Source: Escherichia coli (GTDB taxonomy: Bacteria > Pseudomonadota > Gammaproteobacteria > Enterobacterales > Enterobacteriaceae). From it: a stretch of DNA of 64,000 bases. Under the pieces are notes generated by a model that worked only from the letters and a program-made list of their open reading frames with translations, did no database searches and was not told where the DNA came from. A program made the translations under genes and the position numbers. The stretch lies in the NCBI RefSeq assembly GCF_044324875.1, contig NZ_CP172185.1. The stretch is one strand, 5' to 3'. Every line of letters begins with the position of its first letter. Position 1 is the first letter of the stretch. Positions 15,778 to 64,000 of the stretch are shown piece by piece.

Positions 15778-16830
15778 TTGAGTAAAAATAAACTCTCCAA
15801 AGGCCAGCAGCGCCGCGTGAACGCCAATCACCAGCGTCGTCTTAAAACGTCTAAGGAGAAGCCCGACTACGACGACAATCTGTTTGACGAGCCTGATGAA
15901 GGTATCGTCATCAGCCGCTTTGGTATGCACGCTGATGTGGAATCCGCCGATGGCGACGTTCACCGCTGCAATATTCGCCGTACCATCCGTTCACTGGTGA
16001 CCGGCGACCGCGTAGTCTGGCGTCCGGGTAAACCGGCGGCGGAAGGCGTAAATGTCAAAGGGATCGTGGAAGCGGTGCATGAGCGCACCTCGGTGTTGAC
16101 GCGTCCGGATTTCTACGACGGCGTGAAACCTATTGCCGCCAACATCGACCAGATTGTCATTGTCTCCGCCATTTTGCCGGAGCTGTCGCTCAATATTATC
16201 GACCGTTACCTGGTGGCCTGCGAAACCTTGCAGATTGAGCCGATTATTGTGCTCAACAAGATAGACCTGCTGGACGACGAAGGTATGGAGTTCGTCAACG
16301 AGCAGATGGATATCTACCGCAATATCGGTTATCGCGTATTGATGGTTTCCAGCCATACTCAGGATGGGCTGAAACCGCTGGAAGAGGCGTTGACCGGGCG
16401 CATCAGCATTTTTGCCGGGCAGTCTGGCGTCGGTAAATCCAGCCTGCTGAACGCGTTGCTGGGGCTGCAAAAAGAGATCCTGACCAACGATGTCTCTGAC
16501 AACTCGGGTCTCGGTCAGCACACCACGACCGCCGCTCGGCTGTATCACTTCCCGCACGGCGGTGATGTGATTGACTCCCCAGGAGTGCGTGAGTTCGGCC
16601 TCTGGCACCTGGAGCCGGAACAAATCACTCAGGGCTTTGTCGAATTCCATGACTACTTAGGTCTGTGTAAATATCGCGATTGCAAACACGATACCGATCC
16701 GGGCTGCGCTATCCGGGAAGCGGTTGAGGAAGGAAAAATCGCGGAAACCCGTTTCGAAAACTATCACCGTATTCTGGAAAGCATGGCGCAGGTAAAAACG
16801 CGTAAAAACTTTTCTGATACGGATGACTGA
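15778..16830 (+). CDS. rsgA: Ribosome small-subunit biogenesis GTPase RsgA
   Basis: ORF with G motifs ([14 protein letters not shown]) and C-terminal zinc-finger Cys/His; start placed at TTG 15778 for a 350-aa product. Confidence 0.9.
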
Positions 16831-16926
16831 CAATTAAGCTAACCGTCGTTAGAATCGTCCCCTTTTTTTCAGGATCCGGCATGTAGGCCGGATCAGGAAC
16901 GACAAAACAATGGCCTGGAGGCTACC

Positions 16927-59681: not shown

Positions 59682-59752
59682 TACTTATTTGGTGGACACC
59701 ACTTTGTCTAATTCGTCAGATTCTGACCAGACGGTTCAGGCTGTACGCTTAC

Positions 59753-61833
59753 GCCTGACCGGTGTCTCTGGTGACATATTCCGGAGCTCCGGAGAGAGTA
59801 AAGGTAACGCGATCATCGGCAGAAGCATCTCCATACTGCAGATGCCCGTCGTTGGGGATCATGGCCAGTTTGCCGTAATAGCGATACACATTGTATTCAT
59901 CCTGTGTATAGCCAAAGAAGGACTGATTATTCAGTTGTGAACCCGACAGGCTGACAAACTCGCTGGCAAGAAGATGACTTCCCGTATTATCCAGTTTGTT
60001 CGCGTCAATCAGCAGATTATTACCGGCCGAAATTCTGGCATCCCCCCCTGTTGCACCAACATCGACGCGTGTTGTGCCAGTCAGAAATTTCCGGGTGGCT
60101 CCCTTTTCAGTCGGAACGGCCCATGCCTCAAAACCACCACCGGCAGTACCGCTCCAGGACTTCACATAATATCCCCATCCATTTTCACCTAAATCGCCCA
60201 CTCTGACTGAAACAGAATTTACACCATCAGGTACTGCGACATTCTCAACCGGAATGTATGATTTTGTCTCATTTATACCCTCCCGCTGATTCAGTAAATG
60301 TCCGGTTCTGATGGTGATATCACCGCGGGTGGTTTCGATATTCCCGGAGGTATTAATCACTTCAGCATTCGCGGCACCACTGACATCTTTCTGCATCACC
60401 AGGCTGTAACCCGCCAGCATATCGCCGTGATGGTTCCGGATGGTGCTGGCAAACAGCGAGAGGTTATTGCCCGCATACAACAGTGCGGTGTTAATGACTG
60501 CCCCGGCGACCGTTAACACCAGACTACCCGTCGTGCCGGTAAAACCGTCGAGAGTGATATCTCCCCTGCTGGTCAGGCTGACGTCCCCGCCTGCCTGCAG
60601 GCTGCCGCTGGCATTCATCGCAATCCCGCTGCCGCTCAGTGCCGTGGTGCCGTTGCCGGCGGTCAACTGGCCATTGTTGGTCAGCCTGCCTGCAGCATTC
60701 AGCGTGATACCGTTGCCCTGCAATGTGGCGCCATTGGTAATATCACCCTGGCTGCTGACGGAGAGTTGTTTATTCGCGGCGATAACGCCCTGTGCGGTCA
60801 AACCACGTGTGAGCTTCAGCGTCAGGTTACCGAGTGCAACCAGCTGGCCCGCGCCGCTGAGCGAGACCATTTCAGCAAGCATATCACCGCCGCTGAACAC
60901 CTTCCCGCCGGCGTTGTTCAGGCTGTTCCCTTTTATTGTCAGGCCCTGATTACCCAGCAGCGTGCCGCTGTTGGTGATGGTCTGCGTGTTGACGTTCAGT
61001 TGTGCAGCCTGGAACAGGCCACGGTTGGTCAGACTGTTACCTGTGAGCGTTGCCTGATTCGCCGCCATCACAGTGCCATTACCGGCAAGCTTCGCCACGT
61101 TCAGCAGCAGGTCAGTGGCCTGTAGCCAGCCACTGCCACTGTAGTCCGGCGTGGTGAACGTCAGCTCACCGCCGGAAAGAATCTTGCCACTGTTGTGGGC
61201 CTGCGTTGCCGCGCTGAGCGTGGTTTTACCGTTGCCCTGAATGGTGCCGTCATTAGTCAGCACAGGTGCAGAAAGCGCTGATACGTTCTGACTGAGAAGC
61301 ACACCGCTGGTCTGGTTGGTCAGGGCATTCAGCAATGTAAGAGTCAGCCCGCTGTCGCCCTGCACACGACCTGAGTTGGTCAGCGAACTGGCGGTGATTC
61401 GGTTATCCGCCCCCTGAAGCTGCCCACTATTGCTGATGTCTCTGGCGTTGACGTTTAATGTACCGCCTGTCAGCATTTTACCGTGCTGTTGCAGATTACC
61501 ACTGAGTGTCACATTCAGGCTGTTAACACCACTGATTTCGCCACCGTTGCTGAGCGAATCACCATTCACTTCCAGCGTCTTCGCGCTGATTAATCCCTTG
61601 TTACCCAGCACTTTCCCGGTAAGGCGGGCATCGCCCAGGGCGGTAATTTTGCTGCCGGTGGCAGCAATAACATCGCCACTCAGGGTCAGAGCCAACTCCA
61701 GCGCACTCTGAACAGCACCGCTGCTGGTCAGGCTGCTGGCATCCAGAGTAATGTTCTGCCCCTGAATCCGGCCGCTGTTGGTCACATCTCCTGCGCTCAG
61801 CGTCAGCGAGTTCTGGCTCGATCCGCGCACCAC
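59753..61833 (-). pseudogene. Internal fragment of a filamentous-haemagglutinin / CdiA-like two-partner-secretion exoprotein
   Basis: 694-aa minus-strand ORF made of degenerate repeats (...LTNSGRVQG..., ...LNNAGGKVFSGGDM..., ...GNSLTNRGLFQAAQLNVN...); no TPS secretion domain; reading frame terminates inside the IS66 terminal repeat. Confidence 0.7.
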
Positions 61834-61872
61834 TTATCCCGAACTGCGTCAGCAGTTGATCGGAGGTACACC

Positions 61873-62424
61873 ATGAAACGCATTCTGACCCGTGGCCTGG
61901 CGCTGCTGATGCTGATGCTCGCCGGCTGCAGCATCGAGGTCACCGAGTACCGGCAGCAGCAGCCCGCCCTCGACATCTTCCACTATTTTCAGGGTCGAAC
62001 CGAGGCGTGGGGGATGGTGCAGGATCGCCGCGGTAAACAGCTGCGCCGCTTCCATGTAGCGATCGATGGCGACGTCGTCGGCGACACCCTGACGCTCCAT
62101 GAGCGCTTTGTCTATGACGATGGCGAGAAACAGCAGCGGGTGTGGCGCATTCGCCGCACCGGCGATAACCATTATCAGGGCACCGCCGGGGATATCGAAG
62201 GCGTGGCCAGCGGCCAGGCGGCAGGCAATGCCTTTCACTGGCGCTACAGCATGAACGTCGAGGCCAGCGGCAGCCGGTGGCTGCTGCACTTTGACGACTG
62301 GATGTTCCTGCAGGACGGCAGCCATTTGTTTAACAAAACCGAGATGAAGAAATTCGGCATTACGGTGGCCACCGTGACCCTTTTCTTTACCCGAACCACA
62401 GCAGAAGAGAGGACAGCGCCATGA
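61873..62424 (+). CDS. Putative lipoprotein
   Basis: 183-aa ORF with signal peptide and lipobox MKRILTRGLALLMLMLAGCS; stop overlaps the next gene's start (ATGA); high-GC codon usage. Confidence 0.65.
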   Translation: MKRILTRGLALLMLMLAGCSIEVTEYRQQQPALDIFHYFQGRTEAWGMVQDRRGKQLRRFHVAIDGDVVGDTLTLHERFVYDDGEKQQRVWRIRRTGDNHYQGTAGDIEGVASGQAAGNAFHWRYSMNVEASGSRWLLHFDDWMFLQDGSHLFNKTEMKKFGITVATVTLFFTRTTAEERTAP

Positions 62425-63380
62425 ACACGCAACCTGTCATTGGGATCAGCGGATGTTTAACCGGCTCAGCCGTGCGATTCGACGGCGGGCATAAGCGTAT
62501 GGGCTTTGTGATGGATGAGCTCGCGCAGTGGGTGGCGTTTAAGCCCGTCTGCCCGGAGATGGCGATCGGCCTGCCCGTTCCCCGCCCGGCGCTCCGGCTG
62601 GTGCAGACCCCGGTCGGGGAGATCCGCATGCGCTTCAGCCACGCCCCGCACGAGGATGTGACGGAGAAGATGGCCGATTTCGCCAACGCCCATCTGGCAA
62701 CCCTGGGCGAGCTGTCGGGCTTTATCGTCTGCGCCAAATCGCCGATCTGCGGGATGGAGCGCGTGCGGCTGTATGATGAAAAAGGCAATCGCGGGCGTAA
62801 GGAAGGCGTGGGGCTGTTTACCGGCGCCCTGATGGCGCGCTACCCGTGGCTTCCGGTGGAAGAGGATGGCCGGCTGCACGATCCGCTGCTGCGGGAGAAT
62901 TTTGTCGAGCGCGTCTTCGCCCTGCATGAACTCAACGCCCTGCGCGCCCGCGGCCTGACCCGCCACGGCCTGCTGGCCTTTCACAGCCGCTACAAGCTGC
63001 AGCTGCTGGCTCACCACCAGGCGGGCTACCGCGAGATCGGCCCCTTCGTCGCCTCGCTGCATGAATGGGAGGATCTGGAGGCTTTCTTCGAGGTCTATCG
63101 CGAAAAGCTGATGGCGATCCTCAAGCGGCCCGCCTCTCGGAAAAACCACACCAACGTGCTGATGCATATTCAGGGTTATTTCCGCGACCAGCTGAACAGC
63201 CGCCAGCGCGGCGAGCTGCGGGAGGTGATCCTCAACTATCGCGCCGGGCTGCTGCCGATCCTCGCGCCGCTGACGCTGCTTAAGCACTATCTGGCCGAGT
63301 ATCCGGATCGCTACCTGCAGGCGCAGAACTATTTTGACCCCTACCCGCAGGATCTTGCCCTGCGCCTGACGGTGAACTGA
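62421..63380 (+). CDS. YbgA-like protein (DUF523 plus DUF1722-type)
   Basis: 319-aa ORF MNTQPVIGISGCLTGSAVRFDGGHKRMGFVMDELAQWVAFKPVCPEMAIGLP...; high GC and Leu/Arg/Ala-rich composition. Confidence 0.6.
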   Translation: MNTQPVIGISGCLTGSAVRFDGGHKRMGFVMDELAQWVAFKPVCPEMAIGLPVPRPALRLVQTPVGEIRMRFSHAPHEDVTEKMADFANAHLATLGELSGFIVCAKSPICGMERVRLYDEKGNRGRKEGVGLFTGALMARYPWLPVEEDGRLHDPLLRENFVERVFALHELNALRARGLTRHGLLAFHSRYKLQLLAHHQAGYREIGPFVASLHEWEDLEAFFEVYREKLMAILKRPASRKNHTNVLMHIQGYFRDQLNSRQRGELREVILNYRAGLLPILAPLTLLKHYLAEYPDRYLQAQNYFDPYPQDLALRLTVN

Positions 63381-63395
63381 GGGAACCTGGGCCAG

Positions 63396-63616
63396 CTGCC
63401 CGGCGGCGCTGCGCTTGCGCGGGCCTGGGAGGGGATCCCGCAGGCCTCCTCAGGAACGTAGGCCGGATAAGGCATTTATGCCGCCATCCGGCACAACCAC
63501 AGGTATGGAGCTTGAAGTGTCCTGCCCGGCGGCGCTGCGCCTGCCGGGCCTGGGGGGTATCCCGCAGGCCTCCTCAGAAACGTAGGCCGGATAAGGCATG
63601 TATGCCGCCATCCGGC
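63396..63616. repeat. Two tandem ~97-bp REP/BIME-type palindromic repeat units
   Basis: Units 63396-63492 and 63522-63616, about 90% identical, each containing TAGGCCGGATAAGGCAT(T/G)TATGCCGCCATCCGGCA. Confidence 0.8.
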
Positions 63617-63692
63617 ATAAATGGAGCGCACCAGTCGTAGCCCGGCTAAGCGTAGCGCCAGCCGGGAACGCTCCTTCGACAACGCTATCGCA

Positions 63693-64000
63693 TCAGAACC
63701 ACGCCTCAAACATCCCGCCGACGTTCAGCGAATCCAGCTGCTGGTCTTTGGTGCCGTTGACCTTAGCGGTATGCTCGTTGTCCACCTGACCGCCGGTCAC
63801 GTAGAAGCGCAGCATCGGACGGAACTCCGGCCCCATGCCGATGGCGATGTTCTGCGACAGCGTCAGCTTCCAGCCGTGGTTATCCCCGCCCTGGTCGTAG
63901 TCCACGCGCTGGTAGCCCGCTTCCAGCCAGGTGGAGTGCACGTCGTTCCAGAAGTACATCGGCCGCACGATGGCACCGTAGTTTTTGCGGTTGTCGGTAT
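63693..64000 (-). CDS. LamB-family sugar porin, C-terminal part (gene runs off the window end)
   Basis: Minus-strand ORF ending ...DSLNVGGMFEAWF*, resembling maltoporin-type C-termini; frame open to the window edge. Confidence 0.55.
   Translation of the reverse strand, partial: TDNRKNYGAIVRPMYFWNDVHSTWLEAGYQRVDYDQGGDNHGWKLTLSQNIAIGMGPEFRPMLRFYVTGGQVDNEHTAKVNGTKDQQLDSLNVGGMFEAWF

Follow-up and report, generated by a model that had tools for sequence, protein, structure and literature searches.

A BIME-2-like cluster of five Klebsiella-type REPs between convergent ybgA and porin genes in Escherichia coli

The region analysed here lies near the end of a 64,000-nucleotide stretch of Escherichia coli DNA (contig NZ_CP172185.1), hereafter the window. 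A YbgA-family gene, with its stop codon at 63378-63380, converges with a carbohydrate-porin gene, which has its stop codon at 63693-63695 and continues past the end of the window. A gap of 312 bp separates the two stop codons (63381-63692) and is mostly filled by repeats (Table 1). Sequence reading, a repeat finder and pairwise alignment delimit two direct repeats of approximately 100 bp each, at 63396-63497 and 63522-63621, which match at 95 of 102 aligned columns, with 5 substitutions and 2 single-base gaps. The copies start 124-126 bp from each other, so that a conserved part of approximately 100 bp recurs with a period of approximately 125 bp, and the 28-bp spacer that follows the first copy (63494-63521) has no counterpart after the second. 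Tandem Repeats Finder, run over 63000-64000, returned nothing; there are two copies only, and the spacer is not shared. A sequence-only reading of this DNA had described two units of approximately 97 bp with a common palindromic core, placed between convergent YbgA-like and porin genes. The alignment bears out the two repeats, and open reading frames and annotation bear out their placement. The core that was quoted is present in both units, at 63459-63493 and 63583-63617, and a 31-nt pattern made from it matches the window twice with up to 3 mismatches allowed, and none of 100 shuffles. Open reading frames of 42-77 amino acids that cross the repeats are made up of REP sequence and were set aside as spurious.

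Table 1 Position and strand of the features in and around the ybgA-porin gap, with the basis of each assignment.
Feature	Position in window	Strand	Basis
Klebsiella-derived chromosomal fragment	61812-64000, continuing beyond the window		GC content, identity, gene order, rarity in E. coli
YbgA-family gene (DUF523 + DUF1722)	62421-63380	+	ORF; RefSeq annotation of identical E. coli records
REP-A, unit 1, Y-like (iREP on + strand)	63398-63428	-	Pattern match and fold
Head-to-head linker, unit 1, 29 nt, GAGGGGATCCCGCAGGCCTCCTCAGGAAC	63429-63457		Locus- and allele-specific
REP-B, unit 1, Z2-like, GTAG head	63458-63493	+	naRNA4 partial match, hairpin, published consensus
Tail-to-tail spacer between modules	63494-63521		Conserved between units in other alleles
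REP-A′, unit 2, Y-like	63524-63553	-	Pattern match, hairpin, covarying family stem
Head-to-head linker, unit 2, 28 nt	63554-63581		Sequence reading and alignment
REP-B′, unit 2, Z2-like, GTAG head	63582-63617	+	naRNA4 partial match and hairpin
REP-C, Y-like, GTAG head, GTAGCCCGGCTAAGCGTAGCGCCAGCCGGG	63637-63666	+	Pattern match and hairpin
Carbohydrate-porin gene, 3′ end	63693-64000	-	ORF and annotation

The quoted core is only one part of each unit. Rather than a single palindromic unit, each repeat is a BIME module of two REPs, and a fifth REP, overlooked in the sequence-only reading, follows the second module. When REPs are read, as is conventional, with GTAG at the 5′ end (PMC3333891), REP-B lies on the + strand and REP-A on the - strand, and the array reads A(-), B(+), A′(-), B′(+), C(+), with heads facing each other across the 28-29-nt linkers. 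REP-C, a REP of the A type in the opposite orientation after unit 2, breaks the strict alternation at the end of the array. This arrangement agrees with the earlier rejection of a CRISPR array. Such arrays have at least three short identical repeats and unique spacers of similar length, and the gap holds two units of approximately 100 bp, one 28-bp spacer and known REPs.

All five REPs are extragenic hairpins of 30-36 nt with folding energies of -16.3 to -22.2 kcal/mol, and the stem of the first REP-A begins 17 nt beyond the YbgA-family stop codon. In REP-A the loop GGCGCTGCGC lies between arms GCCCGGC and GCCGGGC. REP-A′ keeps the intact 7-bp outer stem GCCCGGC/GCCGGGC (-22.2 kcal/mol), and the stem of REP-A in unit 1 is weakened by one additional base in its 3′ arm. 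REP-B reads GTAGGCCGGATAAGGCAT(T/G)TATGCCGCCATCCGGCA, has the marks GTAGGCCGGATAAGGC...GCCGCCATCCGGCA and contains an asymmetric internal loop. Folding of each unit, proposed earlier as a check, gave a divided answer: the two REP-B copies fold better than shuffles (both -18.4 kcal/mol; z -3.8 in unit 1 and -3.25 in unit 2), and REP-A of unit 1 does not (-16.3 kcal/mol; z +0.4). REP-C (-16.5 kcal/mol; z -2.6) occurs in all five aligned alleles and is enclosed by an outer stem, GGAGCG/CGCTCC, pairing 63624-63629 with 63680-63685. Folds of the whole region are modestly better than shuffles (z -1.9 and -2.9). GTAG is found at 63458, 63582 and 63637, the heads of REP-B, REP-B′ and REP-C, and both REP-A copies have CCAG in its place. 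The orthologous REP-A in contig L088 and in unit 1 of the p550k allele keeps the CTAC/GTAG head, and the CCAG-headed copies of the window look mutated. It is conceivable, although very unlikely, that the head-to-head linker, which contains GCCTCCTC and is a small palindrome in the window allele, constitutes a third structured module.

Strong stems placed directly beyond both stop codons could serve as Rho-independent terminators of the two convergent genes, and the GGAGCG/CGCTCC stem around REP-C is followed by AUUUAU on the porin sense strand. No U-tract follows the hairpins, however, a scan of the gap for intrinsic terminators found none, the extended REP-C stem does not fold better than shuffled sequence (z -0.9) and the same hairpins recur as a family at hundreds of unrelated sites, all of which makes this reading unlikely. 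That the region encodes a nucleoid-acting small RNA derived from REPs, like naRNA4 (REP325), is extremely improbable. Rfam naRNA4 (RF02564), whose first hairpin is a z-type REP, does match twice, at 63461-63497 and 63585-63627, but the scores of 30.9 bits (E = 0.0025) and 29.1 bits (E = 0.0065) fall well short of the gathering score of 59.5, REP-B aligns to the first hairpin of the model alone with 39-44 model positions skipped, and a promoter scan of 63200-64000 found no promoter-like site. One matched hairpin below the gathering score indicates that the region is no member of naRNA4. Rfam matches to mir-3661 and RtT (E = 0.49 and 4.7) are noise, and no family reached its gathering score.

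Both REP types have published counterparts in Klebsiella. Two REP consensus sequences, GTAGGCCcggcAAGCGcAGCGCCgccgGGC and GTAGGCCggatAAgGCGaAGcCGCCatccGGC, are given for the RAYT of K. pneumoniae 342 (Nunvar 2010 Table 1, PMC2817692). The reverse complement of REP-A′, CCAGGCCCGGCAGGCGCAGCGCCGCCGGGC, matches the first and REP-B, GTAGGCCGGATAAGGCATTTATGCCGCCATCCGGC, matches the second, so that the window has both types of this RAYT-associated pair; it differs from the pair in the mutated CCAG head of REP-A and in a slightly longer inner stem-loop of REP-B (GGCAT-TT-ATGCC). We used as Klebsiella reference the K. pneumoniae chromosome CP125156.1 (5.37 Mb), which is recorded in PLSDB as 'plasmid unnamed2', a mislabelling. 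Strict patterns found 4 A-like and 8 B-like REPs in 200 kb of it against 0 in shuffles, and the 312-bp gap used as a query matched 34 places in the same chromosome. In the 64-kb window all five strict-pattern REP matches fall in the ybgA-porin gap, and 149 kb of the core of E. coli ES1 holds five Z-like REPs, one E. coli-type Y REP and zero of the A type. Elsewhere in the window, a short palindrome at 16868-16900, GGATCCGGCATGTAGGCCGGATC, follows a T-run beyond an ORF ending at 16830 and has a REP-like head, GTAGGCCGGAT; it failed the REP patterns used and may be a REP remnant or a terminator.

The pairing of a Y-type loop with a Z-type head is widespread among Enterobacteriaceae. A scan with the pattern GGCGCTGCGC-N25-50-TAGGCCGGATAAGGC over one genome per species gave at least 120 stretches with at least 146 instances outside the present locus. 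Among the matches listed are Citrobacter, Kosakonia, Salmonella, Enterobacter, Kluyvera, Superficieibacter, Pseudocitrobacter, Leclercia, Phytobacter, E. albertii and E. coli, with 25 instances in one genome of Kosakonia cowanii; they include no genome labelled Klebsiella and one mislabelled Klebsiella contig, L088. Many of the listed instances form tandem arrays, in which 3-5 units recur every 86-114 bp. The window differs from most sampled arrays, among the matches listed, in its period of approximately 125 bp, and its 28-29-nt head-to-head linker exceeds most linkers in the family sample.

The search pattern left the arms of the Y-like hairpin free, and covariation could be examined in 86 distinct copies; the Z-like REP, its 5′ arm fixed by the pattern, lies outside this test. 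Pairing holds in 94.7% of the cells of the Y stem but in 18-47% when partners are slid, and double-sided changes number 78, against 2-12, and affect 5 of the 7 pairs; the observed values were reached by 0 of 500 shuffles. The commonest arm pairs are GCCTGAT/ATCAGGC (54), GCCGGAT/ATCCGGC (18) and GCCCGGT/ACCGGGC (17), followed by GCCCGAT/ATCGGGC (10) and GCCTGCT/AGCAGGC (3). The Y-like hairpin is thus under selection, its stem kept by compensatory change.

Together with the naRNA4 hairpin, the K. pneumoniae consensus and an ISKpn1 insertion in a REP-A loop described below, this widespread pairing upholds the REP/BIME assignment made from the sequence alone, and the 312-bp gap holds five Klebsiella-type REPs in a BIME-2-like cluster. 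REP/BIME clusters in the intergenic DNA of enterobacteria are textbook knowledge. The element is accordingly of a kind already known, an ordinary enterobacterial intergenic repeat of little importance in itself, and annotators need call neither ORFs nor a CRISPR-like repeat here. Klebsiella BIMEs were reportedly described by Bachellier et al. in 1993.

As in the E. coli BIME-2 arrays of tandem y and z2 REPs (for example malE-malF), two REP types alternate in orientation, the heads face each other across a variable linker, the tandem modules are conserved at the locus and variable between strains, and an IHF site is lacking. REP-B is close to E. coli z2 but has GCCGCCATCCGGC, with one extra C. 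Unlike E. coli y, the Y-like REP of the window combines the GGCGCTGCGC loop with a CCCGGC stem, as is usual in Klebsiella, Citrobacter and Kosakonia, and the linker is 28-29 nt rather than short. The y-type and z-type REPs that stand head to head around a longer linker are also shared with the IHF-binding E. coli BIME-1 (RIB/RIP). BIME-1, however, occurs singly, and its conserved L linker holds an IHF site (PMC3333891), whereas the modules of the window are tandem, their linker is unconserved between alleles and the gap has no WATCAANNNNTTR. This IHF consensus, with at most 1 mismatch, has 57 matches in the window and 0 in 63381-63692. The suggestion that the repeats act as IHF sites is thus not borne out, and an IHF role for the cluster appears unlikely.

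A locus-specific tandem duplication with incidental palindromes, outside any dispersed family, would look similar in some respects. A query spanning the REP-A/linker/REP-B junction of the unit of approximately 100 bp matched 13 of 5,426 E. coli genomes, with 2 places per chromosome (n = 11) and 1 per plasmid (n = 2), so that unit and linker junction are confined within E. coli to the present locus; the full unit was found in 11 E. coli genomes. The 19-nt linker core shared by the two units, ATCCCGCAGGCCTCCTCAG, has 0 exact matches in 100,044 species genomes. The palindromes themselves nevertheless belong to dispersed families: relatives of REP-B occur in 5,176 of the 5,426 E. coli genomes, at a median of 5 places (E ≤ 1e-3), the Y stem covaries among its distinct copies, and the listed pairing matches and the K. 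pneumoniae REP matches lie on different contigs with different flanks from the present locus. ISKpn1, which is REP-specific, has targeted REP-A, and locus-specific linkers are usual for BIME-2. A chance duplication is therefore scarcely credible at all, and for the REP modules it is refuted. Uniqueness of the unit in the genome had been put forward as something that would overturn a REP/BIME assignment. The whole unit is indeed unique to the present locus in its host. In a BIME, however, each locus has its own linkers and dispersal concerns the REP modules alone, so that uniqueness of the unit refutes no REP/BIME call, and the test was ill-posed.

Alleles of the gap differ in the number of modules. 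That of pKPN-262 consists of REP-A, a linker and REP-C, with no REP-B (0 modules), the chromosome of K. pneumoniae strain 176 (Kpn176) has one module and REP-C, the window two modules and REP-C, a 550-kb K. pneumoniae replicon (p550k) three modules and REP-C, and contig L088, which ends within the array, at least 3.5 modules. In the allele alignment the head-to-head linkers differ between units and between alleles, which explains why the 19-nt linker core has no exact match elsewhere; linkers differ even between units, and we dropped the absence of this 19-mer as a sign of uniqueness. The tail-to-tail spacer is conserved between units, and the true module is therefore approximately 121-126 bp. 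The two units of the window are copies of this approximately 125-bp module, the number of which varies between strains. E. coli BIME-2 and atypical BIMEs are likewise tandem, with variable linkers, conserved within a locus and different in number from strain to strain (Ton-Hoang 2012, PMC3333891). All 11 of the E. coli chromosomal carriers have the same two-module allele; in Klebsiella the number of modules runs from 0 to at least 3.5. This variation could make the locus useful for typing within the K. pneumoniae complex.

On the 550-kb replicon NZ_CP129856.1, a copy of ISKpn1 (L003, 2459-3902) lies in the loop of the first REP-A, with the junction GGCGCTGC, IS, TGCGCTTGC and a 3-bp TGC target duplication. 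Specific insertion of ISKpn1 into K. pneumoniae REPs has been reported (PMC1525189), and this insertion is a clean natural example of REP targeting.

Could the unit instead be a REPIN or MITE-like mobile doublet, copied to new sites by a RAYT? The layout described for REPINs is two inverted REPs with a spacer (PMC3337134), and similar pairs flank the RAYT of the donor species. We took a REPIN to be two inverted copies of one REP that form one long hairpin and disperse as a unit. REP-A and REP-B, by comparison, are of different types, each forms its own hairpin with no mutual pairing in the folds, the unit with its linker was found at no other locus in the species-genome and E. coli scans, and in other alleles even adjacent units have unlike linkers; the REP-A/linker/REP-B unit is thus no such doublet by this definition. 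Separate hairpins, a unit confined to one locus and varying linkers therefore favour local amplification of modules over dispersal of a fixed doublet, which is very improbable.

The DNA around the cluster is foreign to its host. From 61812 onwards the GC content is 62.8%, against 51.6% for the remaining window, and the identity to Klebsiella loci is 95-97%. The segment 61800-64000 occurs in 13 of 5,426 complete E. coli genomes, with 100% identity in a few E. coli chromosomes (GF43, ES1, I2 and ST38). Its genes run from DUF3833 and ybgA through the BIME to the porin and, beyond the window, to xylA, an MFS transporter, GH43 and HNH, and the K. pneumoniae chromosome shares this order: DUF2878, a hypothetical gene, DUF3833, ybgA, the REPs, porin, xylA, MFS transporter, GH43 and HNH. 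GC content, identity to Klebsiella and shared gene order lead us to conclude that the repeat is a Klebsiella intergenic region that was transferred horizontally to E. coli. In ES1, which is identical to the window over the present region, the segment sits inside an island with IS66, IS3 and other IS remnants; the fragment comprises roughly 9 kb of Klebsiella chromosomal DNA and lies in an island bounded by IS elements. A Klebsiella-type BIME-2-like REP cluster, transferred into E. coli and with a function that is read from E. coli REP/BIME work, is very probably the best explanation of the locus as a whole. Klebsiella-type REPs and a 63% GC content thus flag imported DNA, and REP type could be used as a cheap indicator of the donor lineage.

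At 61812 the 63%-GC segment starts abruptly, abutting a truncated pseudogene of beta-strand repeats (CdiA/haemagglutinin-like; 59749-61833, - strand), and of the Klebsiella gene upstream of DUF3833 the last 63 bp alone survive there. Recombination at the left end of the imported DNA appears to have taken place here. The DUF3833-ybgA-porin block is also present on large conjugative plasmids, namely pKPN-262 (L004) and the E. coli replicons NZ_CP067312.1 and NZ_CP067266.1, where it adjoins lacY and lacZ and has a shorter gap without REP-B. With a chromosomal and a plasmid version, E. coli has therefore gained the Klebsiella locus at least twice.

A search for a REP-associated transposase had also been proposed, and it found one in the donor species and none in the host DNA covered. 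The single RAYT of the K. pneumoniae chromosome shares 69% identity with E. coli RayT and carries on both flanks a Y-like iREP, a linker and a Z-like REP. No RAYT was found in the 64-kb window (best tblastn E = 0.029), nor any RayT match in the 175 kb of ES1 examined. Within the species, rayT is present in 3,574 of 5,426 genomes and has no match in 1,852, about a third. The yafL-lfhA interval that holds rayT in K-12 has, in ES1 (NZ_CP133856.1, 1086481-1089737; L133, 46482-49738), hicAB between yafL and an lfhA pseudogene, with rayT absent. With hicAB at the rayT site and no RayT in 175 kb, RAYT action in the present host is therefore unlikely. The recognition rules of E. coli RayT (PMC3333891) suggest, moreover, that loss of the GTAG/CTAC head should impair recognition on the REP-A side. 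It is conceivable, although distinctly unlikely, that the array is an orphaned foreign BIME in E. coli lineages apparently without rayT; should the stability of the allele stem from loss of the cognate RAYT and not from recent common descent, the locus would provide a natural test of whether RAYTs drive changes in BIME copy number.

The work on E. coli REPs summarised in PMC3333891, which underlies the RNA protection, gyrase and RAYT steps, suggests how the BIME-2-like cluster may act. Neither gene has a U-tract terminator, and both convergent transcripts, ybgA and porin, should therefore run into the REP cluster. There, the GC-rich hairpins (-16 to -22 kcal/mol each) would block 3′-to-5′ exonucleases, and they may also act as points of transcription pausing or attenuation and fix the 3′ ends of both mRNAs. 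At the DNA level, alternating Y and Z2 REPs would provide the kind of site at which DNA gyrase binds and cuts E. coli BIME-2. Module number may have changed in the Klebsiella donor by homologous or slipped-strand recombination between modules or, alternatively, through cleavage and strand transfer by a RAYT. In E. coli, its present host, the array is probably carried along passively.

Enterobacterial REP contigs also appear in assemblies with foreign labels: URSI01000001.1 (L088) in a Clostridiales MAG, NZ_POTX01000528.1 (L089) in Micromonospora endophytica and NZ_VIFM01000789.1 (L120) in Myxococcus. The two isolate contigs are 439-461 bp long at approximately 1x coverage, and L088 is the Klebsiella ybgA locus; all three probably reflect contamination or mis-binning.
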